Source: an uncultured Bacilli bacterium (GTDB taxonomy: Bacteria > Bacillota_I > Bacilli_A > RF39 > UBA660). Taken from it: a stretch of DNA of 64,000 nucleotides. The DNA lies in assembly GCA_934183185.1 (NCBI GenBank), contig CAKPSO010000002.1, positions 3,050 to 67,049 on the forward strand, written 5' to 3'. The position numbers were made by a program, and so were the translations under genes. The notes below the pieces were generated by a model. The model ran no database searches. It was not told the DNA's origin and saw nothing but the letters and a program-made list of their open reading frames with translations. Positions 1-61,873 of the stretch are shown here, in pieces; position 1 is the first letter of the stretch; the number at the start of each line of letters is the position of its first letter.

Positions 1-1283
1 ATTCCTGATAAGCTAATACCATTTAGAATAGCTGCCATAGCGTGTTCACGAACTCCAAACCAGATGTTTTTACCGGTTCTATTAGTTGGGGAGAAGTCAC
101 CCATATCTTCTAAATAAGTTTTGGTTGAAGAACTAAGATCAGCACTACCGCCCATTATAAATGGGTAAGTTTTAGCATATTGATTTAGTATTTTACCATT
201 AGTTACTCTTAGGGCTTCATTTTCAGTAGCTATAATAGAATAATCGATATTATTATCTAGAATAATACTATTCTTCTGAGTTAAATTTTCTAAATCAGCT
301 TTATCTTCTGGCGTAAGTCTTGCTTCTGTTTCTAATGATGCCTTATAGTAAGGCTCTATTCTCTCATGAATTAATCCTTGCATTAAGTCTATAGTATCTT
401 GAGAGACAGTAAATGGTATATCGCGTAGTCCTAACTGAGTTTTAATAGTCTTTATTTCTTCTTTATCTAAAACCATACCATGAGCAAGGTTAGTTCCTTG
501 ATTTTTAGAATATCTTCCTATTACAGTTTGAACTATAATTAGCGTTGGTTTATCGATTGATGTTTTAGCTTTTTCAATAGCATGATCTAGGCTAGTTAAA
601 TCTTCTCCATCCTGTACTACTAGAACATTCCAATTCATTCCTTGAAATCTAGTCATAACGTTTTCTGTAAAAGTCATATTAATATTTCCATCTAATGTGA
701 CTTGGTTACAATCATATATAGCTATTAAATGACTTAGTTTTAAAGTACCAGCTAAAGATGCAGCTTCATATGATACTCCTTCCATTAAATCACCATCACT
801 ACATAATGTATATGTATAATAGTTTATGAATGGTAGGTTCTTTTTCAAATAATAGTTACGTAAGTATTCTTCAGATATAGCCATACCTACTGCTGATGCA
901 AAGCCTTGCCCTAATGGTCCAGTAGTCATATCAACCCCAGGCGTTACTCCATATTCAGGATGTCCAGGTGTTTTAGAATCTATTTTTCTGAATTGTTTCA
1001 AATCTTCTAAAGTTAAATCGTAACCTGATATAAATAAAGTTGCATAGAGTAAAGCAGAAGCATGACCGCATGATAACACGAAATGATCCCTATTATACCA
1101 TTTAGGATCCTCAGGATTTATTTTTAAGTGTTTTGCGTAAAGTGTATATAGTATTGGTGCAGCATCTAATACTATTCCTGAATGACCACTACCAGCTTCA
1201 TTAATCATGTCAAGTGCTAAGCAACGTATTGTATCAACTATTTTTTTCTCTTCTGTAGACTTATCTTTATCCCAAAATAACAT
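1..1283 (-). CDS. tkt: Transketolase, N-terminal portion (C-terminus lies beyond window start)
   Basis: Minus-strand translation from ATG at 1283 (RBS AGGAGTG) gives SGHSG TPP-binding motif and RDHFVLSCGHAS/LLYATLFISGY transketolase signatures; ORF runs off the window edge. Confidence 0.85.
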   Translation of the reverse strand, partial: MLFWDKDKSTEEKKIVDTIRCLALDMINEAGSGHSGIVLDAAPILYTLYAKHLKINPEDPKWYNRDHFVLSCGHASALLYATLFISGYDLTLEDLKQFRKIDSKTPGHPEYGVTPGVDMTTGPLGQGFASAVGMAISEEYLRNYYLKKNLPFINYYTYTLCSDGDLMEGVSYEAASLAGTLKLSHLIAIYDCNQVTLDGNINMTFTENVMTRFQGMNWNVLVVQDGEDLTSLDHAIEKAKTSIDKPTLIIVQTVIGRYSKNQGTNLAHGMVLDKEEIKTIKTQLGLRDIPFTVSQDTIDLMQGLIHERIEPYYKASLETEARLTPEDKADLENLTQKNSIILDNNIDYSIIATENEALRVTNGKILNQYAKTYPFIMGGSADLSSSTKTYLEDMGDFSPTNRTGKNIWFGVREHAMAAILNGISLSG

Positions 1284-1337
1284 ATATTTTCACTCCTATC
1301 ATTATTAGTATAACATAATTCATAGAAAAAGACGATT

Positions 1338-2741
1338 TTACTCGTCTTCGAATAATTTTTCTACATCATTACGTACTTTTTCATCTGATTTATTATCAAC
1401 AAAATCATCTGGTCTAAACTCACGTGTAGCTTCTAAATCACCGGGCATAATACTATTTGATTTTTTAGTAGTACTTTCTTCTTTAACATCATTATCAGTT
1501 TGGTTAATGGTTTCTTTTTCTTTTTCTTTTTCTTTATCTTTATCTATATTTTTATTTTTCTTTTTACTTTTCTTATCTTTCTTTTTAGTTGATGTAATTA
1601 TATAGAAGTATATACCTATACCACCAATAGCTAATAGAATAAGGCAACCAATAGTTACAAAAACATATCTTAAGGTATGATTAGAACCACTATCTTCATC
1701 TGATGTTCCTACTCCCGTAGCATTACTAGAAGTTGGTGATGTATATTTACTAGAATGTCCTGTTTCTACTCTTTCATCTTCAGCTAATCTAGTAACTACT
1801 ATTTTATATGTCCTTTGATTACCAGAGGTATCAGTAACTGTAACTGTAACTGTATTTTTACCAACTATTAAGCCAGTTGCTCCAGTAATTTTTACGGTAG
1901 CATTACTATCTTCAGTAGCAGCTTGAATAGTAACATCCGTTGCTTCAAATGGAATATCTGCTGTATATTCTAGAATATTAGTATTAAATGTTTCGTTTAG
2001 GGCATACCCTTTTATCTTAAGTGATTTTAAGTTTAGGTTTGATTCTTCTTTTTTTACTGTAAATTTATAAGTCTTATTAGTTTTACCATCTTCAGCTGTT
2101 ACTACTACTTTAACGATAGTACCGGTATGAATTGATGAATTATTAGCTATTTTAGTTCCAGCTTTTTTATCAGATAATTCAATATTGAATTCTAGTTCAG
2201 TAACATCTTTAGCTACAGTTACTATATATTCTTCATCTGATTGTTTAAAAGCTTTATCTAAAGTACCATTTTTGATACTTAGATTTTTTATAGTTGCATC
2301 ATTTGATTTAACTGTTTCTTGTTTTGCTGCTACTTCTATTTCACAGGTAGCTTTTTTAGCTTGATCATCTTTTGCAGAAGCTGTAATAGTTGCATTTCCA
2401 GCTTTTATAGCTGTTACTTTACCATTTTCATCAACAGTAGCTACGCTGGTATTACTACTAGACCAAGTGATTTTGGTATTAGTTGCGTTATCTGGTGTAA
2501 CTGTAGCTTCTAACTGCTTTGTATCACCTACTACCATGTTAATTTTACTTAATGATAGATTAACACCAGTTACTGCTATAGTTGGTTCAACTGATGGTGT
2601 TGGAGTTGGTGATACTACTGGATTAGTAGTTGGCGTTGGAGTTGGTTCTCCCTCCTCAGCAAAAGCCATAGTTGGCATTAATAATAGCATTGTGGTTATA
2701 ATTAATAACTTATTTCGTTTCTTCATATTAAATATAGACAT
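1338..2741 (-). CDS. Membrane-anchored surface protein: signal peptide, TP-rich linker, Big_2 Ig-like domain, two cadherin-like beta-sandwich repeats, C-terminal TM helix and K/E-rich cytoplasmic tail
   Basis: N-terminal hydrophobic signal (LLLMPTMAFA), PTPTPT linker, Big_2-like segment (VTGVNLS...ATVTP), TM segment LRYVFVTIGCLILLAIGGIGIYFYII followed by KKKDKKSKKK and EKEKEKEKE tail. Confidence 0.55.
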   Translation of the reverse strand: MSIFNMKKRNKLLIITTMLLLMPTMAFAEEGEPTPTPTTNPVVSPTPTPSVEPTIAVTGVNLSLSKINMVVGDTKQLEATVTPDNATNTKITWSSSNTSVATVDENGKVTAIKAGNATITASAKDDQAKKATCEIEVAAKQETVKSNDATIKNLSIKNGTLDKAFKQSDEEYIVTVAKDVTELEFNIELSDKKAGTKIANNSSIHTGTIVKVVVTAEDGKTNKTYKFTVKKEESNLNLKSLKIKGYALNETFNTNILEYTADIPFEATDVTIQAATEDSNATVKITGATGLIVGKNTVTVTVTDTSGNQRTYKIVVTRLAEDERVETGHSSKYTSPTSSNATGVGTSDEDSGSNHTLRYVFVTIGCLILLAIGGIGIYFYIITSTKKKDKKSKKKNKNIDKDKEKEKEKETINQTDNDVKEESTTKKSNSIMPGDLEATREFRPDDFVDNKSDEKVRNDVEKLFEDE

Positions 2742-2789
2742 TTTACTACCCTCTCTTTACTATATCAATGAGTATATCATATTTAATAG

Positions 2790-2818
2790 AAAAAGGAAAG
2801 CTATTTTGTGTGCTTTCC
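2790..2818 (-). terminator. Rho-independent terminator immediately after htpG stop
   Basis: Minus-strand hairpin GGAAAGC-ACACAAAAUA-GCUUUCC followed by UUUUU. Confidence 0.6.
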
Positions 2819-4693
2819 TTATACTAAATGGTCACAAATTAAATTACTAAGTTCAGTTGGATTATCTATAGGTAATCCCTCTATTAAACGGGCTTGAGCA
2901 TATAATATTTTACTATATTCTTTTACTGCTTCTGGATTTTCTTGGTAAAGATTTTTTAGTTTTTCAAAAATTGGATGTTTTTCATTTATTTCTAGAATGG
3001 TAGTTGCTTTTACATTTTCATCTGTAGGCATAGCATTAATAACTTTCTCCATTTCAATAGAAACATTACCATCACTAACTAGACATACTGGGTGATTTTT
3101 TAGTTGGTTAGTAATACGTACATCTTTAACATCTTTTATTGCTTCTTTCATTAATTCTAGCATATCATGATTGTCTTTATTTATTTTTTCAAGATCTTTC
3201 TTTTCTTCTTCTGAAGCAAGATCTAGTTTATTAGTAGAAGCATTAATAAATTTTTTATTTTCATATTCTCCAAGTGTCTGTAATACAAATTCATCTACGT
3301 AATCAGTACAATATAGAACATCATAGTTCTTATCCTTTAACTGTTCTACTTGCGGAAGTAAGGCTATTTTGTTTATATTTTCACCACAAGCATAGTAAAT
3401 GGTAGTTTGATCTTTAGACATATTATCTATATATTCTTTTAATGTTATTAGTTTTTCTTGTTTACCAGAATGGAATAAAAGTAAATCTTTTAGACTATCT
3501 TTATGAATACCAAATTCATTGTAGATACCAAATTTTAATTGCATACCGAAGGCTTTATAAAATTTTTCATAGTCCTCACGATTATCTTTTAACATTATTT
3601 CTAGTTCTTTTTTAATTTTTGATTCAATATTTTTAGCTATTAGCTGTAATTTATGATCTTTTTGAAGCATTTCCCTAGAAATGTTAAGTGATAAGTCTGG
3701 GCTATCTACTACTCCCTTTACAAAACTAAAGTAATCTGGCAATAAGTCACTACATTTTTCCATGATTAGAACTCCATTTGAGTATAATTGAAGTCCTTTT
3801 TCAAATTCTTTACTGTAATAATCAAGGGAAGCATGAGATGGAATATATAGTAATGAATTAAATGAGACAAGTCCTTCTAGTGAGTTATGTATTACTCTTA
3901 GCGGTTTTTCATAATCAAAGAATTTATCACTATAGAAAGTATCATACTCATCTTCAGATATTTTATTCTTATCACGTTTCCAAATAGGGATTAATGTATT
4001 AATAGTCTTTATTTCTTTAACAGTTTCGTATTCATCACTGTTTTCTTTTTTCTTTCTAGATTCTACTTCCATTTGAATAGGATATGTGATGTAATCGGAA
4101 TACTTTTTAATTAAATGTTCGATAGTATATGTGTCTAGGTATTGATCATAGTCTTCATCATCTGTATTTTCCTTGATAGTTAAAATTATTTTAGTACCAT
4201 TATCTTTTTTATCTGTTTTTTCAATGGTATAGCCATCTATACCGGTAGATGTCCATTTATACGCCTCATCGCTAGTAAATGATTTAGTGATTACTTCTAC
4301 TTTGTTGCTTACCATAAATGCTGAATAGAAGCCAACTCCAAATTGTCCAATTATATCAATGTTTTCCTTAGCTTCGTTTTCTTCTTTGAATGATAGAGAG
4401 CCACTTTTTGCAATAGTACCAAGATTGTCTTCAAGCTCTTCTTTAGTCATACCACAACCAGCATCAGTAATAGTTAGAGTTCTTTTATCTTTATTAATTT
4501 CAATAAAAATTTTAAAATCGTCTAAGTTTACTTTAACATCTTGATTAGTTAATGATAAGTAATGAAGTTTATCCATTGCATCACTGGCGTTAGAAATTAT
4601 TTCTCTTAGAAATATTTCTTTATTTGTATAGATTGAATTAATCATTAAATCCATTAATTTTTTTGATTCTGCTTTAAATTGGTGTTTTGCCAT
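2819..4693 (-). CDS. htpG: Molecular chaperone HtpG (Hsp90)
   Basis: 624 aa; HATPase_c motifs (NASDAMDKL, ITDAGCGMT, IGQFGVGFYS) and Hsp90 middle/C-terminal domains. Confidence 0.95.
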   Translation of the reverse strand: MAKHQFKAESKKLMDLMINSIYTNKEIFLREIISNASDAMDKLHYLSLTNQDVKVNLDDFKIFIEINKDKRTLTITDAGCGMTKEELEDNLGTIAKSGSLSFKEENEAKENIDIIGQFGVGFYSAFMVSNKVEVITKSFTSDEAYKWTSTGIDGYTIEKTDKKDNGTKIILTIKENTDDEDYDQYLDTYTIEHLIKKYSDYITYPIQMEVESRKKKENSDEYETVKEIKTINTLIPIWKRDKNKISEDEYDTFYSDKFFDYEKPLRVIHNSLEGLVSFNSLLYIPSHASLDYYSKEFEKGLQLYSNGVLIMEKCSDLLPDYFSFVKGVVDSPDLSLNISREMLQKDHKLQLIAKNIESKIKKELEIMLKDNREDYEKFYKAFGMQLKFGIYNEFGIHKDSLKDLLLFHSGKQEKLITLKEYIDNMSKDQTTIYYACGENINKIALLPQVEQLKDKNYDVLYCTDYVDEFVLQTLGEYENKKFINASTNKLDLASEEEKKDLEKINKDNHDMLELMKEAIKDVKDVRITNQLKNHPVCLVSDGNVSIEMEKVINAMPTDENVKATTILEINEKHPIFEKLKNLYQENPEAVKEYSKILYAQARLIEGLPIDNPTELSNLICDHLV

Positions 4694-9903: not shown

Positions 9904-9988
9904 TGGTGCGGGTAACAGGAGTTGAACCTGCAAGCCTTGCGGCGCTAGATCCTAAGTCTAGTGCGTCTGCCAATTCCGCCATACCCGC
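9904..9988 (-). tRNA. tRNA-Leu (anticodon UAG), long variable arm, encoded CCA
   Basis: Reverse complement GCGGGTATGGCGGAATTGGCAGACGCACTAGACTTAGGATCTAGCGCCGCAAGGCTTGCAGGTTCAACTCCTGTTACCCGCACCA. Confidence 0.9.
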
Positions 9989-9993
9989 AAAAA

Positions 9994-10070
9994 TGGTGGA
10001 CCCTGATGGACTCGAACCATCGACCGCCCGGTTATGAGCCGGATGCTCTAACCAACTGAGCTAAGGGTCC
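9994..10070 (-). tRNA. tRNA with CAU anticodon, sequence resembles tRNA-Ile2 (lysidine) more than elongator Met; encoded CCA
   Basis: Reverse complement GGACCCTTAGCTCAGTTGGTTAGAGCATCCGGCTCATAACCGGGCGGTCGATGGTTCGAGTCCATCAGGGTCCACCA closely matches Bacillus tRNA-Ile(CAU) architecture. Confidence 0.8.
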
Positions 10071-39678: not shown

Positions 39679-42234
39679 TTATCTTGTTTTTTGCACTGAT
39701 TCTTCTACTACTTGATCAACACTATCCATTGCTTGTAAATCTTCTGAGTAGGATGATTGTTGTTCAAATTGTTTGATCAATTCATCTTCATCAAAATATG
39801 TAGCATTTGGTGGAGTAATATTACCATCTACGATTGGTGCATAATCAGGTGTTGGTGTAGGATTAACATCTGGCGTTGGAGTAACGTCTGGTGTTGGTTC
39901 TACAGTAGGTTCAGTAGTAGGTTGTGGGGTAATAACAGGTTCAGGTGTAGGAACATCTTTATTAGAATCTTCACTATTTCCTTTATTGATTACATCATCT
40001 ATTGTACCATTATTCCCTGTTGGATCAGTAGTTATTGTTCCAGGCTGAACATAATCTGGAACTTTGTTTGCTTCTTGCATACGTTTTTGATAGTCAGCTT
40101 GGCCATCTGATTTACCTTGGCTATAAGCACTACGGATAGTGCTATTTGCTGATGATGCATAACTACTATTATACTCATCTGTTCCACCTTGATTATAGTA
40201 GTTATAGGTATTAGCATATACGTTTTTATATAAGTTATCTAAGCCATCTTTCTTTGCTTTCTCATATCTATTTTTAACATTGGCATCGGTAGATGTTGAA
40301 TACTTAGTCATTTCACCAGTATTACCACTGGCAAAATAGTTAAATACATCATTATAATCAACTTGAAGTGCTGCTTTTTCTTGTCTTGCAATTTGCTCAT
40401 GTTTTTGCTTTGTGGCATCAGTATCTCTTTCAGAACCTACTGCTTTAGATGCGTCTTCTTCAGACTTAATAATTCCAGCTTCTGCCTCTGCTGGTGTGTT
40501 ACCATTGGCTACTAATGAATCTTTAGCTGCAGCTGTATTAGATGTTTCTAATATTTCTTGAAGTTTACTAGAATATGCTTTATCTGAGCCACCAATTTTT
40601 GATAATTCTTGTAAAGCTGTTTCAGTAACTTTTTCCCAGAAGGTATTAGAGTACATTTCGTTTTTGGTTAATGATTCAAGTTTTTGGTTAAGCATTGAAG
40701 CTATTAAATCATTATCATATGTATACTTAGTAAGTTCACCAATTACTGCATCTTCATTATCAAAATTCATATTACTAACTGCTTCAGCTACTTTATCAGC
40801 ATCTATTTTACCATCTTCGTCAGTATATACTGTAAGTTGTGCTTTTAAAGCTTGTTTATTATCTTCAACCATTTTGTCAGATGTCTCTAAATTTACTCTA
40901 TACTCATCGGCATCTCTAAATTTTTCTTCTTGTTCACCGCAAGATAAATCAGCTATACTTTCCTTAGTTCCATCTATTCCAAGATAATATTTTTCAGGAT
41001 TATATCCTAATTGTTTTAAGAAGTGGTTTTCATCAAACTCAGCAAATCCTTGAACATATCTACTCATAAATACTTCATCGAATAGATCTACCTTTACTTC
41101 AACTTCTTTAGCAGTACCAGTTGTATATATAGTCATTTTATCTTTATAATTTCTTAAATCAGCTTCTCTTTGATCTGCAGGTAACATTGTTCTTAATAGA
41201 TAAGAAGTTGAGCCAGCACGTGCTTTAGTTTCTTTACCTTCAATATCACTATTGAAGTAATCTTTATACATTTCTTTTTCTGCTTGCATTAATGTTTCTT
41301 TTTCATTAATTCCGGCACTCATCATTTTAGCATGATGTTCTTCAAATGTATTTATTACTTCTTTATCATGTTCATCATTGAAAAGTGATGAAATATTTGA
41401 TGTCTGATTACTTAATGAATAATATAAATTCATTTTTTCCATGAAATCATTACTTAAATCCATTATTTCATCAGCATTTATATTGCTTCCATTACAGATA
41501 GTAATTAATTCCTCATCAGTAAAATTATTAAATCTTAAATAGAAAGCCATTGTTTCTTTTGGCGTAAATCCAAATCTTGATTCTTGACCATTATTATTAG
41601 TTCTTGTCATCCAAGATTGTGAGTTATTGAATTCAAGTAGCCAAGTGCCTACTTTTGTCCAAGCTTCTTTTTGAATACTATCAATAGCATTTTCTGTGTA
41701 ATAATCCCAATCTTGACCATCCATACTAGGTTTTACTATCTCATCATTTACTTCTTCTTGAGTTTCTTCTGTAACTGGTTCTGCTTGATGATTACGAGCA
41801 TATGTAACACCCGCAACAGCTCCAGCTGTTACAGCAATGCCCAAACCAGTAAGTGCCATAGCTGTAGTAAGACGTGATTTACCGTTATTATCAACATTAT
41901 CATTCAAACTATCTCTATATTGTTCATATAATTCTAAACTTTTAGAGTTAGAAGCTTTGAAAAATTGTAAATCTTCTGAATCTTTTAATACTCCATTTTG
42001 TTTATTCAATGTGAATGAATTAGCAGAAAGACATTGACTAAATAATTTAGTCATATTTTGTCTTCCTTTAATATCATTCATTGCTTCGGCACTTACTATA
42101 CCATTTGTACCATCAGCATATTCAATTAATAATTGATAAACGCAATCTTTTTGAGTAACTTTAGGATCTGTTGCTTTATCAATTAATACTACTTTTAAAT
42201 TTTTAATATTTTTTGTATTAATTTGTTCTTCCAT
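39679..42234 (-). CDS. Large bitopic protein: ~120-aa cytoplasmic N-domain, one TM helix, ~700-aa extracellular domain, PT-rich C-terminal tail
   Basis: TM LTTAMALTGLGIAVTAGAVAGV; C-terminal TPEPVITPQPTTEPTVEPTPDVTPTPDVNPTPTPD. Confidence 0.45.
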   Translation of the reverse strand: MEEQINTKNIKNLKVVLIDKATDPKVTQKDCVYQLLIEYADGTNGIVSAEAMNDIKGRQNMTKLFSQCLSANSFTLNKQNGVLKDSEDLQFFKASNSKSLELYEQYRDSLNDNVDNNGKSRLTTAMALTGLGIAVTAGAVAGVTYARNHQAEPVTEETQEEVNDEIVKPSMDGQDWDYYTENAIDSIQKEAWTKVGTWLLEFNNSQSWMTRTNNNGQESRFGFTPKETMAFYLRFNNFTDEELITICNGSNINADEIMDLSNDFMEKMNLYYSLSNQTSNISSLFNDEHDKEVINTFEEHHAKMMSAGINEKETLMQAEKEMYKDYFNSDIEGKETKARAGSTSYLLRTMLPADQREADLRNYKDKMTIYTTGTAKEVEVKVDLFDEVFMSRYVQGFAEFDENHFLKQLGYNPEKYYLGIDGTKESIADLSCGEQEEKFRDADEYRVNLETSDKMVEDNKQALKAQLTVYTDEDGKIDADKVAEAVSNMNFDNEDAVIGELTKYTYDNDLIASMLNQKLESLTKNEMYSNTFWEKVTETALQELSKIGGSDKAYSSKLQEILETSNTAAAKDSLVANGNTPAEAEAGIIKSEEDASKAVGSERDTDATKQKHEQIARQEKAALQVDYNDVFNYFASGNTGEMTKYSTSTDANVKNRYEKAKKDGLDNLYKNVYANTYNYYNQGGTDEYNSSYASSANSTIRSAYSQGKSDGQADYQKRMQEANKVPDYVQPGTITTDPTGNNGTIDDVINKGNSEDSNKDVPTPEPVITPQPTTEPTVEPTPDVTPTPDVNPTPTPDYAPIVDGNITPPNATYFDEDELIKQFEQQSSYSEDLQAMDSVDQVVEESVQKTR

Positions 42235-42247
42235 TATGTTTCACCCC

Positions 42248-43780
42248 TTATTTATTTCTTGTTTTTCCGGTATATGTATAACCATTATTTAATAAGTTTT
42301 TATCTCCGTATGAACTCCATAAGTAAGTAGTTTTAGCTTCTTGAACATTAGTACATGTTTTCTCACGATAGAAATGAACATCACCATAAATTGCCTTTTC
42401 AGCTGATTTTTGAACTGTTTTAATTTCAGTTATAGTTCTATTTATATATAATGGGATTGAACGTGTTTCTACACTTGTACAAGTAGCTGTTACAGTAGCT
42501 GCAGAAGTGTGAGAAGTTCCATTACGTTTATATAAATGCCATACTGTATATGGGTGATTTGTACATGTTGCACCACATTCACCATAGTCTACCCCAACAG
42601 GTAACCATTTTGCAGTAGGGGTTGGATCTGATGGTGGATTGTATCCTCTATGTTCTTGTTTAGTATCATACCAATCACCTGTTACTTGAGTAATAGTATT
42701 TCCTGATACAACGTAATTATATCCTGTACATACTTTATAATCATGAGTGCCTACTTGAACTTGTTCAGGATAAGTAAATGTTACTTTTTCATAAACGGCT
42801 GGTTCAGTACCAATTTGTACTTTCTTAGTGCCTAAATCTTCTACTACTTTATAAATGTTATTTACTGTAGTTAAACTTTGTCCTGATTTAAGAAGTTTTG
42901 TTGACCAATTTGACCAGTTACTACAATAAGCTTCAGTATATTTTCTATATTCATATTCTTTTACTGGATTGTTACTTGGTTTTGGAGTACATTCATCTTT
43001 CCAAGTTTCAAAACTTACTTCAGTTGCATTTTTACCATAGTATTTACCATCTTTTATCTCACAAGCCTTTGGAACATCTGGAGTAACTGTTGGTGTTGGA
43101 GTTACTGTAGGTGTAGTTGTTGGCGTTGTAGTTGGTGTAGGTGTAGGTTTAACAGTTGGTGTATTAGTTGGAGTAAGTGTTGGTCTTGGGCTGTTACTTG
43201 GTTTAGGTGTTGGTTTATTAGTTAGTTTAGGTGTAGTTGAAGGTTTTTCAGTATTATTAGGTTTAGCTTCACAAATATCTGTTGAACAGTATGAGTAGCA
43301 TCCTAAATGTACTAAAATATAGTTTTCTTCTTCACTACATTTTAAGTTAACTTTCATTAGATATTCAGTATCTTTTTTCTCTAATGATACATATGATGCT
43401 GTTACATCACATGCTTTACCATTCTTATCAACAAATGGTATTAATAACTTCATGTCTAACATTTCTTGTAATGTCATTTTCTTAACATCACCTACATTTT
43501 CTGGTAATCTCTCAGTTGTATAGTAAGTGATTGCAGCATTCTTCATTTCTTGAATGTTAGCATTGAATATTTGATCCTTTAATGGGTTTAAAGCATCAAT
43601 ATATGAGTCCATTTTAGGCCATGGTACTAGCCATATAAGTAATAACACAAAGATGATAATCAAAATTAGCTTTAGTAAAAAGCTTTTTAGTAGATTTCCT
43701 TTTCTTTCTTCTGTATACATATTATAATCTCCCCCTTTGTTTATGTGCCGTATTATAGCATAAAACAAATTTTTTGTCAA
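42248..43780 (-). CDS. Signal-anchored Cys-rich extracellular protein with PT-rich linker
   Basis: N-terminal TM LLKLILIIIFVLLLIWLV, linker PTPKPSNSPRPTLTPTNTPTVKPTPTPTTTPTTTPTVTPTPTVTP, many Cys; 14-nt gap to upstream gene. Confidence 0.45.
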   Translation of the reverse strand: MTKNLFYAIIRHINKGGDYNMYTEERKGNLLKSFLLKLILIIIFVLLLIWLVPWPKMDSYIDALNPLKDQIFNANIQEMKNAAITYYTTERLPENVGDVKKMTLQEMLDMKLLIPFVDKNGKACDVTASYVSLEKKDTEYLMKVNLKCSEEENYILVHLGCYSYCSTDICEAKPNNTEKPSTTPKLTNKPTPKPSNSPRPTLTPTNTPTVKPTPTPTTTPTTTPTVTPTPTVTPDVPKACEIKDGKYYGKNATEVSFETWKDECTPKPSNNPVKEYEYRKYTEAYCSNWSNWSTKLLKSGQSLTTVNNIYKVVEDLGTKKVQIGTEPAVYEKVTFTYPEQVQVGTHDYKVCTGYNYVVSGNTITQVTGDWYDTKQEHRGYNPPSDPTPTAKWLPVGVDYGECGATCTNHPYTVWHLYKRNGTSHTSAATVTATCTSVETRSIPLYINRTITEIKTVQKSAEKAIYGDVHFYREKTCTNVQEAKTTYLWSSYGDKNLLNNGYTYTGKTRNK

Positions 43781-45003: not shown

Positions 45004-46755
45004 CTAGAAATACCAGCTGCTTAGCCATTTAAGACTATCAATATAGTCACTATTAGTAAGCATTCCTGATATTACTGGATAGAAACAAATAAACATTAAT
45101 ATTACAATAGCTACATAGAATAAGTAAACACTATTATTTTTGATTTTTTCAGTTATCCATTTAATGAAAGCTGTTATAGCTAACATAACAAATGGTAAAG
45201 TTGGGAAATAATGATACATAAACATAACTCTTCCAATAAATAAATATGGTAACCAACTACATAGTATAAATACTAGGATAAAAGCATATTCTCTTTTTTT
45301 CTTTAGAATAGTCATGATTAATACAAAGATACTTGCAAGTATTCCAAACCACCAAATAGCTGGATTACCAATACCTACGATAGTAGATTTAATATTTCCA
45401 CCGTGATATCCTACATAATACCAAACTGGTTTATACATAATTGGCCATGTATACCATTTAGAAGAAAAATCATGAGTAGCAGTTAATTTAGAATGATATT
45501 CATACATATTTTTAGTTTGTTCTATTAGGCCACTAATACCTGATACTTTACCAGGATAAATAGTTGGGAATAATAAGTATGCTAGTGTATAAATTACGAT
45601 AGGCATTACTACAAAGAATAGTATGCAAGCAAGAATTATTTTACCTAAATCTTTTTCTTTTCTACCTCTTCTATTTTGAAGAATAATATGAGTAAAGAAC
45701 ACAATAGCTAGTCCTAATCCAATGTATAATCCAGTCCATTTAGTAGCTATAGCACATCCTATAAATAAGCCTGATAGGAATAGATTTAATAATTTTTTGC
45801 TTAGTCTTTCTCTCTTATCCATAACGATATATTTATACATAAATAGTACTGATAACATCATGAATAATACTAAGAAGCTATCTACAGTTCCCATTCTGGT
45901 TTGTGCAAAATGGAAACAATCAAATGTCATAAGTAATGCTGCAAGTATAGCCCATTTTCTATTTTTGAAAATGTTTTTAGCTAATGAATAGATAACAGGT
46001 ATCATTAATATACCAGCAATATTACCCATTAGACGGTAAGCAAATGTACACATTCCAAATAACATAATTGGAAGAGTCATAAGTAATTTACCAAGTGGTG
46101 GATGAACCCATTCATTAGTTGGAATACCATGAATATATTCATAGGCACTTCTAGCAAAATAAACTTCATCAAAGTAAGCACTATTTTTATAGCTTATTGT
46201 TGCTGGAACAGTGTTTGCTTCATCTATTACTACTTTACTTTGATCATCATTAGCTATAGCAGTTATTTTTTCACCATATTTATCATATAGTTGAATTTCT
46301 CCTATAACGCTTCCTTTATCTTTAGCAACAAATTTAATATATTTACCTGTAGTATCTATATTAAAATCATTCCAAGAGAATACCATATTTTGTTCTATGG
46401 TTGTTAGATAGTCATAATTTTCTCCATCGTTAGATGCAAATATATCATAACTACCTACTTCATAACCAGAGTAGATTCTTGCAAGTCCTACTTCTTGGTT
46501 AGGTTTTTGTAATTCTAGGCCAATTTCTTCTCCAGAATATTGGAATTCATAAAAAGTTTGTGGATTTTTAAGAGTTCCTAAATCTTTAAAAGATAAAATA
46601 GCATAGAATAATACGAATACTGCAATTATTATCCAGTCTGTCTTTTTAAGTTTACGATCATCATCACGAAGATATGATTTCACTTTAGAAAACCAAGTCG
46701 TTTTCTGTTTGTTTTCTTTTGTTTCTTTTTTCTTTTTCATATGACTATGATTCAA
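45004..46755 (-). CDS. GT39 (PMT/ArnT-like) protein O-mannosyltransferase-like membrane glycosyltransferase with inserted N-terminal discoidin-like domain
   Basis: YFDEVYFARSAYEYI DE motif and HPPLGKLLM, more than 10 TM helices; ~140-aa soluble domain between TM1 and the DE motif. Confidence 0.65.
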   Translation of the reverse strand: MNHSHMKKKKETKENKQKTTWFSKVKSYLRDDDRKLKKTDWIIIAVFVLFYAILSFKDLGTLKNPQTFYEFQYSGEEIGLELQKPNQEVGLARIYSGYEVGSYDIFASNDGENYDYLTTIEQNMVFSWNDFNIDTTGKYIKFVAKDKGSVIGEIQLYDKYGEKITAIANDDQSKVVIDEANTVPATISYKNSAYFDEVYFARSAYEYIHGIPTNEWVHPPLGKLLMTLPIMLFGMCTFAYRLMGNIAGILMIPVIYSLAKNIFKNRKWAILAALLMTFDCFHFAQTRMGTVDSFLVLFMMLSVLFMYKYIVMDKRERLSKKLLNLFLSGLFIGCAIATKWTGLYIGLGLAIVFFTHIILQNRRGRKEKDLGKIILACILFFVVMPIVIYTLAYLLFPTIYPGKVSGISGLIEQTKNMYEYHSKLTATHDFSSKWYTWPIMYKPVWYYVGYHGGNIKSTIVGIGNPAIWWFGILASIFVLIMTILKKKREYAFILVFILCSWLPYLFIGRVMFMYHYFPTLPFVMLAITAFIKWITEKIKNNSVYLFYVAIVILMFICFYPVISGMLTNSDYIDSLKWLSSWYF

Positions 46756-46942
46756 TTATGAATCATTCCTCCTTTTCTTTTATATTACATCTATATAAAT
46801 TTTATAAATGCCTGAAATTCGTGGCCGCGGCTTTTCATAAAAGGAGAAAAGCTATAGCCTCATATATCAATATTTTTTTAATTAATGATTTATACTTTTC
46901 TCCAATTCCTGTTTACGCGAGTGTTAACGGCACATTCGGTGC

Positions 46943-48871
46943 CTACGGAGCAAGCACTACACGAAAAGAATTGTACGTGTCCACATCGCCTGGACCGAAG
47001 CCGAATGCAAATGCACCAGATTCAGTGGCATTGTACCAATAGCCCCCGCGTACGAACCAAGGAAAATAAAAATCAGCAAAGAGAGCGAGATCTCCATACC
47101 AACTTGATTTTTGCCTAGTTGTACCATCTGGATCTTTTTCACTTCCAAATGGGCCCATCTCTCCAGTTGCATCTCCTAAAATTCTATTATTATATTGTGT
47201 TTTAGAAATTGATGTATATTTATCCCAATATTTTGTATAAGTACTATTAGTAAAGAAGTCTTGATATATACTAGTTATTTCGCTTTTTCCCCCTACTGTT
47301 GTTGCACCAGTAGTATAGCCTGCTACATATTCCCAGGCACCTCCTGCCATATCATAAATTCCACTTCTATTTCCTGTAGTTGATGCTACACCTGAGTTAG
47401 CATTTAAATAATTTACAGTATAGGTTCCATCTACTCCTAAAGAAGTTGATTCATGTCTATTAGTATCGGTACTTGAACTAGTTGGACCAGTTGTTGGCTC
47501 AGTAGTTGATGCATAACCGGTAATATATGCTTCATTATTATTTATTCTGATACTAGCTTTACTACCATATACTGAATGTTGTAAGTATGCTACCGCTCCC
47601 CACTCTGTATTCTTCATCATATGTGAATCTAAATTTCTTTGATAATCATAACTATTTTTAAAAGCATTACCTACAGTTATATTTCGCCAACTATATACAT
47701 TTGGTTTTATTATTATCTTACTTGTATCTACACTGTTTACTTGGGCGGCACTAGTACTTGTAGCTTTATCATATCCAGTTTCAAACTTTCCTACCCAGAA
47801 ACCATTTGAATCAAAACTAGTAAATGCTGGATGAGTTAACCATGAGTCCTTAGTAGTTCCATTTGATGGAGTTGTATCTTTATTCTCAAATACTACATTT
47901 ATGGTTTGAACTTTGTTTTCGATACTAGTTAGGCTTGTATAATTACCTTCATCAAATATTTGGTATTTGAACCTAGGTATCCATACAAAGTATGACTCAA
48001 TATTATCTTCTGGTATTGTTTCTCCATTATTATAAGTTTTTGTTTCATCTTTTAATATTATGGCATTGGCCCATTCTTTATTTTCATACTTGTACCATTC
48101 TTTACTTATGTCTGCCTTAGTTACTGTTCCATCACCAGCTATTTTTATTGGTATTAAATTACCCTTTAATACTGGGTCTGTTCCATTTAATATTGTTTCT
48201 TTATATGCAGTTGTTTCTTTTTCTATATCCACATTTGAATATACATTTACTGTTGCTTTAAACGTTTTATCATTATATGGATATACTTGATTACCACTAT
48301 TATCTTTTGTTGGTGAAAAGTCTGTAGCCTCATCTATCCATATTCTTAATCTAAAACTCTTTTCATAATTAGTAGTATTTGCTTTTATTGTTGATTGGTA
48401 TAAAGTCTTTTCTATATTACCATTTACTTCTACCTTTGTATCAGCTAATTGATTATACTTAGTTGGTGCTACTAATACTCTTTCCGTTGTATCTGTAGTA
48501 TCAGTTAAATATACTTTTACTACACTAGAATCTAGTGTTGAATCGCTACTCTTTCTTAATGTTACTTCATATGGCATAATAGTATCTCCAGTATTTGTTG
48601 CCTGTACTTTAAAATCAAAAATATTATTATTACCTTCTAATAGTTTTCCTTGACTATCTGATATTGGAAAGGCATTAGTCATAGTTATACCATTTCCTCC
48701 ACCACTATTTTCTGTATATATAAATTTTAATGTTCCTGTAGTTACTGTATTATCTGTAGTTCCTAATTTTGTATAAGTAAATACTGCATAAGTTACTCCC
48801 GTAGTTATTAATAGTAGGCTAGCTATTCCAAGTAAAGATACTATTATTTGTCTACTCTTATTACTCATCAT
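46943..48871 (-). CDS. TasA/camelysin-like secreted protein (SipW-cognate signal) with C-terminal FGE-sulfatase-like domain
   Basis: N-terminus LLLITTGVTYAVFTYTKLGTTDNTVTTGTLKF matches GxTxAxF(S/T)D...GTL pattern of TasA/CalY; C-terminal GIYDMAGGAWEY and RGGYW...FRVV resemble FGE-sulfatase fold. Confidence 0.6.
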   Translation of the reverse strand: MMSNKSRQIIVSLLGIASLLLITTGVTYAVFTYTKLGTTDNTVTTGTLKFIYTENSGGGNGITMTNAFPISDSQGKLLEGNNNIFDFKVQATNTGDTIMPYEVTLRKSSDSTLDSSVVKVYLTDTTDTTERVLVAPTKYNQLADTKVEVNGNIEKTLYQSTIKANTTNYEKSFRLRIWIDEATDFSPTKDNSGNQVYPYNDKTFKATVNVYSNVDIEKETTAYKETILNGTDPVLKGNLIPIKIAGDGTVTKADISKEWYKYENKEWANAIILKDETKTYNNGETIPEDNIESYFVWIPRFKYQIFDEGNYTSLTSIENKVQTINVVFENKDTTPSNGTTKDSWLTHPAFTSFDSNGFWVGKFETGYDKATSTSAAQVNSVDTSKIIIKPNVYSWRNITVGNAFKNSYDYQRNLDSHMMKNTEWGAVAYLQHSVYGSKASIRINNNEAYITGYASTTEPTTGPTSSSTDTNRHESTSLGVDGTYTVNYLNANSGVASTTGNRSGIYDMAGGAWEYVAGYTTGATTVGGKSEITSIYQDFFTNSTYTKYWDKYTSISKTQYNNRILGDATGEMGPFGSEKDPDGTTRQKSSWYGDLALFADFYFPWFVRGGYWYNATESGAFAFGFGPGDVDTYNSFRVVLAP

Positions 48872-57548: not shown

Positions 57549-58148
57549 CTATGATGCACAGGTATTGCTACTATATATAGTAGCAATCCAATCTATTCTA
57601 TTACCGTTAGTATCGGTTGGTTGAAGATTTTCTAAGCCTTTGATAGTTGACAAAACAGCTTTTTTACCAGATGGGGTTCCACATAGAGACTGAATAGTTA
57701 CTTCCATTTTATTCTTAGCATCTGATATTACTTCACTACGATTTACATCATCAATATTCATTAGTGGAATAGCATGACGATCTTTGTCCTGCCCAGCTAC
57801 AAGATATGTATATTCAATATTATTAGGAGTTCCAGTATTTACAACTGCTACATAACTTTTACTTTTTACCCACTCACTGTCAAAGGAAGATGAAAATTTA
57901 CCTTTATCAAGTGGTATTGATTCTAATGAAACGATTAAAACTTGATTAAAATCTATTGGTGCCGTATAATCTTCTGCTGCTATTCCTTTACGAACTGCAT
58001 CTACATATTCAGATAAAACATCGGCGAAGGCTTCTCTTTTAGATGAATCTATATAATTAGAAGCTGCTGGAATAGCTATAGTTAAAACAATACTTAATAT
58101 TACTACTACGCCTAATAATTCTACTAGTGTAAAGCCTTTTCTATTCAT
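57549..58148 (-). CDS. Type IV pilin-like protein (prepilin N-terminus, C-terminal disulfide loop)
   Basis: MNRKGFTLVELLGVVVIL class III signal with G-F cleavage site and E+5; Cys pair near C-terminus. Confidence 0.75.
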   Translation of the reverse strand: MNRKGFTLVELLGVVVILSIVLTIAIPAASNYIDSSKREAFADVLSEYVDAVRKGIAAEDYTAPIDFNQVLIVSLESIPLDKGKFSSSFDSEWVKSKSYVAVVNTGTPNNIEYTYLVAGQDKDRHAIPLMNIDDVNRSEVISDAKNKMEVTIQSLCGTPSGKKAVLSTIKGLENLQPTDTNGNRIDWIATIYSSNTCAS

Positions 58149-58226
58149 GTTCTCACATCCCTATGTTAATAATATCATAAATTTTATAAAAGTACAAAAG
58201 AAAAACCCAACTTTGTGGGTTTCTTT

Positions 58227-58826
58227 TTATTTAGCTACTTCTTTTACAGTGATGACATTCTGTTCAGTGCTACTAGCTTTTTCTAATCTACCGTTAGTTG
58301 CTACTTTAAAATAAGTTGGTGTTGATGAAGTAGTATCATATATTTTTTCAAAACCATTGCTGTCTAGACGAATTACATCTGATGCTTTTAGACTTTTTTC
58401 ATCTATTATTTCAAGATTTTTATTTGAACCAGTTACATATTTACCATCTGATGCTGTTACATAATAATCGTATTTTGGTGAATCTGCTGATCCTGTATTT
58501 ACTATTATTACATAAGAATTATCTAACTTCCATGGTAAGTCATATGAACTATTTACTCCACCTTTTTCAATAGCGATACTTAATACGCTAAATGGTACTA
58601 CTGTTGCATCGTTAGTATCGATTGGATAACTATATTCATCTCCTAATGTTGCTCCTTTTCTTGCAGCATCTATAAATTGAATTAAGTTATCTTTATATCC
58701 ATTCTTTCTTGATTTAGTTATATATTGAGATACAGCTGGGATAGCTATTCCTAATACTACAGCTAAAATTACGATTACAGCTAGTAATTCAATTAATGTG
58801 AACCCTTTCTTATTTAATTTCTTCAT
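58227..58826 (-). CDS. Type IV pilin-like protein, copy 1 of duplicated gene
   Basis: MKKLNKKGFTLIELLAVIVILAVVLGIAIP prepilin motif; first ~140 codons identical to 61292..61873. Confidence 0.75.
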   Translation of the reverse strand: MKKLNKKGFTLIELLAVIVILAVVLGIAIPAVSQYITKSRKNGYKDNLIQFIDAARKGATLGDEYSYPIDTNDATVVPFSVLSIAIEKGGVNSSYDLPWKLDNSYVIIVNTGSADSPKYDYYVTASDGKYVTGSNKNLEIIDEKSLKASDVIRLDSNGFEKIYDTTSSTPTYFKVATNGRLEKASSTEQNVITVKEVAK

Positions 58827-58845
58827 AATAACTATTCTCCTCTCT
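58410..58845. repeat. Direct repeat copy 1 (~436 bp, near-identical to 61454..61892) covering pilin 5' half and RBS
   Basis: Line-by-line identity over coding 5' region and ATAATAACTATTCTCCTCTCT RBS region. Confidence 0.8.
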
Positions 58846-58931
58846 ATTATTATATTTTAATTTTACTACTAATAATTTTTAATTGTCAACAAAGGGCAAT
58901 ACTTTTAAAAATTATTGTCACTAGTTTACAT

Positions 58932-59435
58932 TTAGTTACTACAAGTTCTAATTCCACCAGTTACACCAGTGATACTACGAATATCGCTATCAGTTGGCAC
59001 TGTAAAGTTTTTAACTACATAGCTTAATTTGCCATCTTCATCAAGTTTTTTCTTTTCTGTTAGGCGAATTCCTCTATTCTTACCGTTTTCACCAGCTACA
59101 AGATTAACATAGTAGACTAGTTCTTCGTCTTTATGGACCACAATCACAAAGGAATCAGTTTCGCTATATTCATTTCCATCAGGATCTTTAGTTAGGTCCT
59201 GATTATCAACACATGATAGGTTGATTCTTACTATTTCACCAGCTACTGGTTTACTGATTGTGTTAGCTAATTCTGTTTTGGCTTGGGTTAAAAACTTTTT
59301 AGCATCTGATATATAAGTTTCTTTTTTGCTTTTTTCTAAGCTAGATACTATATTTGGTATAGCTATTCCCATAATAATAGAGAGAATTACCAATACTGCT
59401 AAAAGTTCTATTAATGTAAATCCACGTTTATTCAT
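58932..59435 (-). CDS. Type IV pilin-like protein with C-terminal Cys pair
   Basis: MNKRGFTLIELLAVLVILSIIMGIAIP prepilin motif. Confidence 0.75.
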   Translation of the reverse strand: MNKRGFTLIELLAVLVILSIIMGIAIPNIVSSLEKSKKETYISDAKKFLTQAKTELANTISKPVAGEIVRINLSCVDNQDLTKDPDGNEYSETDSFVIVVHKDEELVYYVNLVAGENGKNRGIRLTEKKKLDEDGKLSYVVKNFTVPTDSDIRSITGVTGGIRTCSN

Positions 59436-59466
59436 ATTTTTTCTCCTTTTTTGAATTGATTTTTAT

Positions 59467-61197
59467 TTAACTTATAACGTATGGGTCAGAACTTGTCCCA
59501 GTTCCCGTTACCAGCATGTCAGCATTCAGGCTCAAAACTGCACGAAGGCGATTAGTAACATTAACATTGTCGTTATTGATGTTACCTGACGTATTTACGC
59601 GCCATACAGTCGAACCCAAGAAGCCGGCCGGGCTCATTGTCCACCAATTAATAGCTGAATTATATAAATAATATTTACTATTATCTTTTCCATAATAACC
59701 ACCTGCATGTACTACTTCATCATAACTTAATAATCCCACACTGGCATTGACTGGTCCTTTTCCATTTCCATCGGTTGTACATTTAAAATCTGGCGTATAA
59801 CTTGAGTATAATGTCATTGTTGCACTTCCCGATGTCCAACTTGAATCACATTTAGCTTTTGCTTGTTCACAATAATAATTGCCACTAGCTACATTTTTAA
59901 CTAAGTCTGCTTTACTTCCGATATTCGTTTGATACCAGCTTTCAAGTTGAGTCTTAGCTTCACTATTTGAATAATACATATAAGTATAGTTTTTATAATT
60001 TGGATTAAATGCAATATTAGCATTACTATTGATTCCATCTTGCATTACGATTCTTATTGTTCCATCTTCATTTACTCTTACTATTCTCCATGTTTGACCA
60101 GCAAACTTTACATAGTTATTAGTAACATTTCCTCTAAAGTAATATGTTGGATTTCCTGTATTAGTAGCAGTCGATTTATATAATCCACTTGCATCACTTG
60201 TATTATTACTTGATGTAGTAAGTGTTGGATTAGCTGTAATTATTGTATTTTTCATTATTTCATCTTTTAATGGTACTGCCTGTTTTACTTTAATATTAAT
60301 TTTGTATTCTTTAGTTACTGTTTGATCTGTACTAGTAATAGTTACTTTATAGATATTATTACCACCTACTAGACTTACTTCACTATTATTTGATATTACT
60401 TGATTATCTTTTTCTATCTTTACATTAGCTAATGAATACTTAGGTACTATATTTAACTTAGTAGTAGTTTCACTATCTAACTCTACTTCATAGTTCCAGT
60501 CTTTTCCTTCTACTTTAGTTAAACTGGTATCTCCTATAGTTATATCTTTTATATCAGTATTACTTCTTAATACTTGTTCTTCAGCTGATATTACTTTAGC
60601 ATTTGAATATACATTTACTGTTGCTGTAAAGGTTTGTCCTCCTATAACGCTTAAATCTGCATTTTCATCTAACCACATTTTTAATCTAAATGTCTTTAAA
60701 TAATTATTAGTATTTCCTGCTACTTCTCCTTTATAGATACTCTTTTCTACATTATTTCCAACATCAGTAGTAGTTTGTACTAATTTACTATATAGTGTTG
60801 GTGTTAGTAATTCTGTTTGATCTATCCCATCTTGAAGATATACTTTTATATTATCTTCTCCCATAGTAGAAGTAGCTTTCTTTCTTAGTGTTACTTCATA
60901 TGGTATTACTTCACTTCCAGTATTTGTTCCTTCTACTTTGAAATCAAATACATTATTATCTCCTACTAATTCTTTACCCTTAGTATCTGATATTGGTTCT
61001 GCTTCAGTTATACTTATTCCATTACCATTAGTATTATTTTCTGTATACAAGAACTTTAATGTACCAGTAGTTATGATATTATCTGTAGTTCCTTCCTTTG
61101 TATAAGTAAATACTGCATAGGTTACTCCTATAGTTATTAAAAATAAACTTACTATTCCTAGTAATGATACTATTAGTTGCCTCCTATTAGTCTTCAT
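59467..61197 (-). CDS. TasA/camelysin-like secreted protein (SipW-cognate signal) paralog with distinct C-terminal domain
   Basis: LFLITIGVTYAVFTYTKEGTTDNIITTGTLKF; first ~200 aa homologous to 46943..48871; C-terminus WWTMSPAG...NRLRAVLSL. Confidence 0.6.
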   Translation of the reverse strand: MKTNRRQLIVSLLGIVSLFLITIGVTYAVFTYTKEGTTDNIITTGTLKFLYTENNTNGNGISITEAEPISDTKGKELVGDNNVFDFKVEGTNTGSEVIPYEVTLRKKATSTMGEDNIKVYLQDGIDQTELLTPTLYSKLVQTTTDVGNNVEKSIYKGEVAGNTNNYLKTFRLKMWLDENADLSVIGGQTFTATVNVYSNAKVISAEEQVLRSNTDIKDITIGDTSLTKVEGKDWNYEVELDSETTTKLNIVPKYSLANVKIEKDNQVISNNSEVSLVGGNNIYKVTITSTDQTVTKEYKINIKVKQAVPLKDEIMKNTIITANPTLTTSSNNTSDASGLYKSTATNTGNPTYYFRGNVTNNYVKFAGQTWRIVRVNEDGTIRIVMQDGINSNANIAFNPNYKNYTYMYYSNSEAKTQLESWYQTNIGSKADLVKNVASGNYYCEQAKAKCDSSWTSGSATMTLYSSYTPDFKCTTDGNGKGPVNASVGLLSYDEVVHAGGYYGKDNSKYYLYNSAINWWTMSPAGFLGSTVWRVNTSGNINNDNVNVTNRLRAVLSLNADMLVTGTGTSSDPYVIS

Positions 61198-61291
61198 CTA
61201 TAAATACTCCCTTCTATTTTCTACATTACCAGTATAATTCATTAGTAAAATAGCAGTCAAGAAAAAATGTATAAAAAAAGAAGAAGCTTTT

Positions 61292-61873
61292 TTATTTAGA
61301 AGCTACTTCTTTTACAGTTATTGTTCCATTAGAATCAGATGTTAGTCTACCAGTTGATGCGTTAACAGTAAATTTATTACCAACTGCTATAGTACTGAAT
61401 CCATTATTATCTAGACGAATTACATCTGCTGCTTTTAAATTCTTTTCATTAATAATTTCAAGATTTTTATTTGAACCAGTTACATATTTACCATCTGATG
61501 CTGTTACATAATAATCGTATTTTGGTGAATCTGCTGATCCTGTATTTACTATTATTACATAAGAATTATCTAACTTCCATGGTAAGTCATATGAACTATT
61601 TACTCCACCTTTTTCAATAGCGATACTTAATACGCTAAATGGTACTACTGTTGCATCGTTAGTATCGATTGGATAACTATATTCATCTCCTAATGTTGCT
61701 CCTTTTCTTGCAGCATCTATAAATTGAATTAAGTTATCTTTATATCCATTCTTTCTTGATTTAGTTATATATTGAGATACAGCTGGGATAGCTATTCCTA
61801 ATACTACAGCTAAAATTACGATTACAGCTAGTAATTCAATTAATGTGAACCCTTTCTTATTTAATTTCTTCAT
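61292..61873 (-). CDS. Type IV pilin-like protein, copy 2 of duplicated gene
   Basis: Identical N-terminal 140 aa to 58227..58826, divergent C-terminus. Confidence 0.75.
   Translation of the reverse strand: MKKLNKKGFTLIELLAVIVILAVVLGIAIPAVSQYITKSRKNGYKDNLIQFIDAARKGATLGDEYSYPIDTNDATVVPFSVLSIAIEKGGVNSSYDLPWKLDNSYVIIVNTGSADSPKYDYYVTASDGKYVTGSNKNLEIINEKNLKAADVIRLDNNGFSTIAVGNKFTVNASTGRLTSDSNGTITVKEVASK

Follow-up and report, generated by a model that had tools for sequence, protein, structure and literature searches.

The window analysed here, a stretch of 64,000 nucleotides from contig CAKPSO010000002.1 of an uncultured Bacilli bacterium, contains a gene of 642 codons whose 3' end stands out as a GC-rich patch in an AT-rich genome. 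We propose that this patch is, very probably, the variable region (VR) of a gene targeted by a diversity-generating retroelement (DGR). DGRs work by way of a transcribed template repeat (TR): its RNA is copied into cDNA by a dedicated reverse transcriptase (RT), which acts together with Avd and misincorporates opposite template adenines, and the cDNA then takes the place of the VR, at the 3' end of the target gene. The identification follows from the relation between VR and TR, the adenine specificity of their mismatches, the position-specific hypervariability between strains, and the complete cassettes found beside homologous targets. All observations fit known DGR biology, and no new mechanism is implied. 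Coordinates are collected in Table 1; contigs used for comparison bear L numbers and database proteins P numbers.

A template repeat with adenine-specific differences

The TR was deduced codon by codon from the alignment of VRs and translated, and the predicted peptide was searched against a protein database. Six short proteins were returned, three of which are open reading frames (ORFs) derived from TRs. The best of them, P0121, is 96% identical to the prediction and occurs on three gut-metagenome contigs. Two come from Hadza gut metagenomes (L168 and L170); the third, L169, stems from the study that also yielded L001, the twin contig of the window. All three contain a non-coding TR of 144 nt (CTCGCTAAC...GCTCCG), with a near-identical target gene about 200 nt upstream of it. 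The TR carries AAY or AAA at every hypervariable codon (12 AAY and one AAA); adenine makes up 26% of its length, and 27 of its 37 adenines are found in these 13 codons. The TR-bearing contigs are homologous to the window from 47300 to 46770, a segment comprising the 3' end of the target, the hairpin and the spacer. Past ~46770 they go on to the TR and the window to a gene of the PMT family.

The VR of the window, which ends at the last sense codon (46946), that is, at the 3' end of the ORF, aligns with the TR without gaps at 118 identical positions of 144, and 19 of the 26 mismatches fall at TR adenines (binomial p = 6e-7), so that 19 of the 37 template adenines are replaced. The VRs lying next to a TR behave in the same manner when compared with their own template, with 16 of 18 mismatches at adenines in L169 and 15 of 17 in L170; the non-adenine differences of such VRs lie at the extreme end or are single-nucleotide polymorphisms on the TR side. 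In the syntenic contig L005, which has no adjacent TR, all 15 interior mismatches fall at TR adenines, and it can therefore be concluded that this locus is a non-adjacent DGR target in the lineage.

The mutation spectrum was established from the TR/VR pairs of L168–L171 and L146–L159. In the TR family of the window, the adenines at positions 1 and 2 of AAY/AAA codons were mutated in 89 of 182 cases, versus 2 of 42 for those at third positions; in an independent clade, 56/70, 23/70 and 1/35 adenines were mutated at codon positions 1, 2 and 3, respectively. Since each homing event rewrites the VR, this inequality among adenines points to context-dependent misincorporation. The positional bias agrees with the published context dependence (AAC-context effect) of the BPP-1 DGR RT (PMC12875486). 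Position 1 of AAY codons is the most frequently mutated (63% in the TR family of the window and 80% in the L151 clade), followed by position 2 at ~33-35%, isolated template adenines at ~14% and third-position (synonymous) adenines at ~4%.

One further contig, L171, joins the 5' half of the TR, through a common scaffold of 40 nt (GGCACTGAATCTGGTGCATTTGCATT), to the 3' half of the VR of another paralog and its downstream genes (positions 1270-1435). It is most likely a chimeric metagenome assembly, and this fusion shows why TR/VR loci land on short contigs and are fragmented in metagenome assemblies. An attempt to retrieve the invariant 18-mer from genome collections gave 18 matches, all of them due to chance.

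Position-specific hypervariability

An alignment of 115 full-length homologs of the target protein revealed 14 columns with an entropy of at least 3 bits among the last ~55 residues, set within an invariant scaffold of the form SSWYGD.A.FA.SS.PWF.RGG.W..GT.SGAFAF....G.T.T..SFR(V/I)VL. The residues observed in the hypervariable columns are mostly those encoded by NNY codons (Y, N, S, H, D, G and others), tyrosine being the commonest.

The same pattern is apparent between strains. Syntenic orthologs were obtained from three other strains (L003, L004 and L005). In L003 and L005 the flanks are 96-100% identical to the window, with identity of 50-76% within 47090-46970; L004 has the upstream flank in common with the window and diverges downstream of the gene. 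The changes between strains affect codon positions 1 and 2, the third base staying C or T, which is the signature of DGR adenine mutagenesis of AAY codons. The syntenic orthologs retain the GC-rich scaffold codons, and only the AAY-derived codons change. Strains whose flanks are this similar have different VRs, which at the level of the lineage points to ongoing diversification.

Complete cassettes in related lineages

A scan of metagenomes with a profile of the family recovered 78 loci. At eight of them the encoded homolog shows ~48% identity in the C-terminal domain, and the 3' end of the gene recurs as a second copy ~195 nt downstream; of the 114 mismatches at these sister-clade loci, 104 coincide with adenines of this second copy, which represents the TR. 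The cassettes are ordered target, TR, MutS_I (MSL; 39.3 bits), bAvd (PF22296; 56.6 bits) and an RVT_1 RT with both IGxxxSQ and YMDD motifs. Loci with different VRs have RTs that are 100% identical, a sign that the element is still active in the sister clade. In the lineage of the window, the gene that begins ~190 nt after the TR of L168 starts with MSKIYN, the usual N-terminus of the MSL family (21 of 120 homologs).

Six codons into this MSL gene, L168 contains an insertion sequence (IS) element (743-3124) with a transposase-like ORF of 613 aa (weak DDE_Tnp_1 match), bounded by a repeat of ~77 nt at 808-885 and 3048-3124. The insertion may have put the DGR of the L168 strain out of action; alternatively, the contig may reflect an assembly path that runs through a repeat. 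A search with the MSL profile and a look at the most abundant MSKIYN cluster both arrived at another clade, in which the window-type TR is missing. In another clade with MSL, bAvd and RT (L174, L175, L176, L178, L180 and L181), the RT is called as a fragment of 226 aa. In L174 (1041-3531) a separate RVT_1 ORF of 430 aa follows this fragment after ~500 nt, and the RT of L177 is intact (348 aa). The split RT could reflect a group II intron or another insertion in the DGR RT gene. Cassettes of the L174 type have no TR between the target and MSL, the target lying immediately upstream.

State of the window locus

We infer that the genome of the window still carries a cognate TR and RT elsewhere and that the window locus is diversified in trans. 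Several results weigh against this interpretation or against the DGR assignment itself. Neither the 64-kb window nor the 10-kb flanks of the syntenic loci yielded a TR or an RT; the RT search of the window combined a YxDD regular expression with tblastn using DGR RT, Avd and MSL, and returned nothing. No second copy of the segment and no TR were detected in the window or in L001-L005 by repeat search, by blastn or by a strict scan that allowed any non-A base to be A in the template. A TR-specific pattern, which matches the real TR, was found in none of the GTDB representative genomes. The RT of the window lineage was not recovered, the contigs ending or being cut by the IS after six codons of MSL, and the only contig that reaches past the TR is the one in which the IS interrupts this gene. 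The VR of the window has seven interior non-adenine differences from its best TR, versus 0-1 in the TR-adjacent VRs and L005. The VR is the same in L001, the sole other sample with the strain, and no within-strain variation was seen. At the structural level, AlphaFold2 applied to the C-terminal 335 aa with an alignment of 42 sequences gave a pLDDT of 29, and a C-type-lectin/FGE fold was not confirmed.

These results raise the question of a relic, in which the VR was written by a DGR at an earlier time, the TR/RT cassette or its activity has since been lost, and the segment is now a slowly decaying coding sequence. We regard this as a serious possibility that falls somewhat short of probable. 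It would account for the missing TR and RT, for the unchanged VR in the second sample and for the seven interior differences, six of which are non-synonymous and five of which are changes from C to T or A. It is also in line with the clearly decayed VR of the syntenic ortholog L003, which has 24 non-adenine differences from the TR and AT-adapted codons, and with the IS-cut accessory gene beside the TR in L168. On the other hand, the scaffold of the window VR retains the full set of rare A-free codons, its constant 3' end matches the TR, and some seven non-adenine differences have been reported for targets of active, otherwise canonical DGRs (PMC5758913). A variant allele of the TR is an equally good explanation of the differences, and TR alleles do differ between lineages. 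The seven differences may accordingly stem either from a variant TR serving the locus or from drift without an active element. The more distant TR allele of L172 was tried as a better template for the window VR and was rejected, since it leaves 35 non-adenine mismatches versus seven with the TR of L168.

Origin of the GC-rich patch

The composition anomaly by which the first-pass annotation singled out this gene end is real. The mean GC of the window is 0.285 (28.5%; sd 0.045 for 200-nt windows), and the peak, 98 G+C out of 200 (0.49), lies ~4.6 sd above it. This count is exact for 46900-47099, a stretch that takes in 43 nt past the stop codon; it had been assigned to the last ~200 nt of the gene, which hold 92/200 (0.46). 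The segment 46943-47110 has 79/168 (0.47), a value attained by only 0.3% of the 168-nt windows and at only three places, among which the tRNA-Leu/tRNA-Met pair alone exceeds the 3' end of the target gene. The onset within the gene is as abrupt as had been described, GC and codon-usage analysis showing that the genome-rare codons CTC, CGC, GGG, GGC, GTG, ACG and CCG set in sharply at 47089, and spurious ORFs do overlap the patch on both strands, two on the plus and one on the minus strand.

On the coding strand, adenine amounts to 14% in 47092-46946 versus 42% in the remainder of the gene, and the VR is the most A-poor of the 3,080 in-frame 144-nt windows of the window's long ORFs (z = -4.7). 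This depletion of coding-strand adenine is the signal that underlies the GC peak, and it is more specific than the peak: the patch is A-poor and therefore GC-rich.

We propose that the composition of the patch is that of the template. A VR periodically overwritten by TR-derived cDNA would keep the composition of the TR rather than adopt the AT-rich codon usage of the host. The TR packs its adenines into AAY/AAA codons at the presumed ligand-contact positions and mostly avoids them in scaffold codons, where arginine is encoded by CGC and not AGA, glycine by GGC or GGG and not GGA, leucine by CTC or CTT and not TTA, and valine by GTG. The preferred codons of the genome end in A or T, so that A-free scaffold codons are rare and GC-rich ones. 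Mutagenesis would then remove about half of the remaining adenines, leaving an A-poor patch with a sharp 5' edge at 47089. A local composition anomaly is in this way explained by a known mechanism, and in AT-rich genomes a gene end (3') that is depleted of coding-strand adenine and uses rare A-free codons is a practical flag for a DGR VR, one that serves even when the retroelement is off the contig.

It could be argued that the 3' module was instead acquired horizontally, or through homologous gene conversion, from a GC-richer donor without any retroelement, and the sharp compositional boundary at 47089, the extension of the anomaly past the stop codon and the mosaic nature of the C-terminal half of the gene between strains (78-90% identity) would all be compatible with such an origin. 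We consider it very improbable. The differences from the second copy are adenine-specific; this copy is non-coding, and its neighbours are an MSL gene in this lineage and the MSL, Avd and RT genes in the sister clade; the GC-rich scaffold is common to the orthologs, in which only discrete codons vary; and searches of phage and viral collections yielded no related DNA. At the protein level, IMG/VR and INPHARED held no relatives of the target. In the viral collections a GNWNNG pattern matched 64 unrelated phage DGR TRs and the 18-mer gave two chance matches. Since mutagenic retrohoming by a DGR is a one-way, RNA-mediated replacement of a segment by a copy of the TR, the earlier proposal of a recently acquired or gene-converted module captured a 3' module of distinct history, "gene-converted" being the closest description, and erred as to a recent acquisition from a GC-rich donor, given that the orthologs keep the scaffold codons.

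A mere by-product of an amino-acid composition rich in Gly, Ala, Pro and Arg is scarcely credible as an explanation and is refuted by the codon-level analysis: composition does lift the expected GC of the last 60 codons from ~0.30 to ~0.40, but the observed value is 0.47-0.50, GC3 in the last codons is 0.37-0.43 versus 0.16-0.22 expected, 14 of the last 54 codons have a relative frequency <0.10, and the anomaly runs on into 38 non-coding nt after the stop (50% GC). Orthologs do have the same GC-rich codons, as this explanation had been expected to require, but their cause is a retroelement template and not amino-acid content.

Constant end, hairpin and spacer

The VR terminates in a constant segment of 25 nt at the position of the initiation of mutagenic homing (IMH) site, according to the IMH/IMH* concept (PMC5758913). 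In this strain it equals the end of the TR but for one C>T, and in L005, L004 and L168 it differs from the TR at two positions (ACC for GCT). It is followed by a hairpin, which in most relatives reads GGCACC-GAA-GGTGCC and in L172 GCAC-GAA-GTGC, a compensated shorter stem; the L151 clade has a hairpin of other sequence at the same place (z = -2.3). DGRs in general have GC-rich segments beside TR and VR and, behind the IMH, an inverted repeat that is likewise GC-rich (PMC5758913). An IMH-like constant end with a following inverted repeat is thus present at the VR, with a putative role in homing.

The first-pass annotation had also envisaged an embedded structured nucleic-acid element, and a riboswitch, small RNA or attachment site overlapping the gene end might be imagined from the small conserved hairpin just after the stop and the conserved GC-rich intergenic element at 46820-46834; this is most unlikely, as no Rfam family was matched above chance level (best E = 0.67, 18.7 bits versus a gathering score of 100), the folding energies are no better than those of shuffled sequences (z = +0.4 and -0.6), no terminator-like site was present, and DGR VRs are accompanied by an inverted repeat, which explains the hairpin. 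The centroid fold does show the post-stop hairpin, with an energy not significant versus shuffles, and no canonical intrinsic terminator was found in the spacer downstream of the target.

Table 1. Positions of the target gene, its variable region and other features of the window
Feature	Position	Strand	Description
DGR target gene	46943..48871	-	642 aa; from the ORF listing and full-length homologs
VR	46946..47089	-	144 nt, co-linear with the TR of L168, L169 and L170 (CTCGCT...GCTCCG)
Mutagenised tract	46975..47083	-	First to last adenine-derived difference, TR positions 7-115; holds the hypervariable codons
VR constant 3' end TCTTTTCGTGTAGTGCTTGCTCCG	46946..46970	-	Position of IMH
Hairpin GGCAC-CGAAT-GTGCC	46929..46943	-	Begins in the stop codon; place of the post-IMH inverted repeat
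Conserved spacer	46770..46928	-	Homologous to the initial portion of the spacer between VR and TR in the TR-bearing contigs
Intergenic element CGTGGCCGCGGC	46820-46831	+	Inside the conserved spacer; named by the first-pass annotation
High-GC site 1	9904-10070		tRNA-Leu/tRNA-Met pair
High-GC site 2			3' end of gene 46943-48871
High-GC site 3	~59.4-59.7 kb		3' end of the second paralog
Spurious ORF	46719-47042	+	Overlaps the GC-rich patch
Spurious ORF	46885-47118	+	Overlaps the GC-rich patch
Spurious ORF	46957-47172	-	Overlaps the GC-rich patch
Prepilin-like gene	57549-58148		
Prepilin-like gene	58227-58826		
Prepilin-like gene	58932-59435		
Prepilin-like gene	61292-61873		

The target protein and its family

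The target protein consists of an N-terminal signal or anchor segment, an N-terminal domain of ~300 aa and, with the VR at its end, a C-terminal domain of ~335 aa. The N-terminal domain is common to a paralog encoded at 59467-61197 (79% identity between 48550-48849 and 60879-61178). The 642-aa ORF has no exact database record, the product being recorded in a 641-aa form that starts at the second Met. The protein has several thousand homologs, none with a Pfam or NCBIfam assignment, and it matches no family of either database above threshold; for the N-terminal 307 aa, there was no Pfam family even at E <= 10 and no NCBIfam match. The label "TasA-like" consequently finds no backing in the Pfam and NCBIfam scans (TasA / camelysin, Peptidase_M73), the resemblance to TasA being presumably confined to the N-terminal signal-anchor and a 'YAVFTYT...GTLKF' motif. 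The FGE-sulfatase-like domain attributed to the gene end is weakly supported: Pfam FGE-sulfatase (PF03781) matches at the GIYDMAGGAWEY motif with 16.4 bits, below the cut-off of 23.3 bits, and sub-threshold matches occur in 14 of 42 family members. A PDB profile search with the target family matched no solved structure at the sequence level. When the VR scaffold of the family was compared by HHalign with the C-termini of 46 phage DGR targets, a probability of 91.9% was obtained (E = 7e-7, 49 columns).

We infer that the target is a putative secreted or surface ligand-binding protein. A widespread and unannotated family of gut-Firmicute surface proteins is thereby added to the DGR targets. Directly downstream of the target lies a gene for a PMT-family (dolichyl-phosphate-mannose-type) glycosyltransferase (45004-46755, minus strand) with a weak F5/8 type C match, which keeps its place beside the target in L001, L003 and L005. 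A functional tie between the two, such as glycosylation of the target, is possible.

Relation to known diversity-generating retroelements

A close parallel is the TvpA DGR of Treponema denticola, in which a single RT/TR serves tvpA and seven dispersed target genes. Both systems are cellular and not phage-borne, place the VR at the extreme 3' end of genes for surface or secreted proteins, have targets far from the RT/TR (PMC5758913) and share a VR scaffold of the RGGxW...GFR type. The present system differs in coming from an uncultured, low-GC human gut Firmicute, in the N-terminal architecture of the target and in the presence of MSL in the related cassettes; its trans-action on the window locus is putative.

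The order MSL, bAvd, RT in the related cassettes, together with a TR followed by an MSL-like N-terminus in the window lineage, recalls the MSL-type DGRs such as that of Legionella pneumophila. A class of DGRs with MSL and avd was reportedly described by Wu et al. in 2018. The targets are unrelated to the LdtA lipoproteins of Legionella, the order is target, TR, MSL, Avd, RT, and from the window lineage only the first six codons of MSL were recovered, with neither Avd nor RT. MSL accessory genes and non-adjacent targets have both been described for DGRs (PMC5758913).

With the Mtd/Brt/Avd system of Bordetella phage BPP-1 the present system has in common the A-specific transfer from TR to VR, AAY codons at variable sites, a constant end at the site of the IMH with a hairpin after it, and a predominance of Tyr among the outcomes, in agreement with the context bias reported for bRT (PMC12875486); between its VR scaffold and those of phage DGR targets, HHalign gives a probability of 92%. 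It differs from BPP-1 in lacking a phage tail-fibre gene or phage context and a target-adjacent TR in the window, and in its shorter hairpin (5-6 bp) with a GAA loop. Like the Bacteroides DGRs that act on Type V pilus adhesins (bioRxiv 10.1101/2024.11.15.621889), it belongs to a human gut commensal and has a putative surface-binding target; unlike them, it is found in another phylum, beside type IV-like prepilins and with an unrelated target architecture, the possible pilus link being suggested by gene neighbourhood.

The second paralog and other features of the window

The 3' end of the paralog (59467-59660, minus strand) forms the third GC peak (0.44) and, with 25% A, ties as the second most A-poor coding window. 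Its rare codons include CCG GCC GGC, CGC and CTG, and the domain concerned is DUF6273 (25.3 bits). An alignment with the homolog on L095 shows successive codons that differ at positions 1-2 and retain Y at position 3, and after them the invariant CTT CGT GCA GTT. This 3' end may represent a second, independent DGR VR. An Asn-saturated TR-like copy, P0153 on L173 (...GNINNNNVNNTNRLRP), was considered as its template and rejected as non-cognate on account of an indel and non-adenine differences.

The paralog is situated among four prepilin-like genes with N-terminal methylation (N_methyl) motifs (57549-61873), two of which are near-duplicates (58351-58650 versus 61398-61697, 96% identical). This setting suggests a pilus-associated role for the N-terminal module common to the target and this paralog. 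It may be speculated that a cellular DGR of the MSL type acts in trans on several dispersed chromosomal loci in uncultured low-GC gut Firmicutes and there diversifies a family of secreted proteins with two domains, that the N-terminal module of this family is the one found in the pilin-cluster paralog, whose DUF6273 end would be a second, independent class of VR with its own template, and that the window holds two DGR targets of different fold without a retroelement, either as long-range trans targets or through fossilisation of the VRs after loss of the element. Taken as a whole, we deem this broader scheme rather unlikely.

Elsewhere in the window, 12-nt-periodic direct repeats rich in GTTGG/GTAGG (families D3 and D4) occur at 2565-2646, 39850-39933 and 43079-43214, where they presumably encode low-complexity linkers in large minus-strand proteins.

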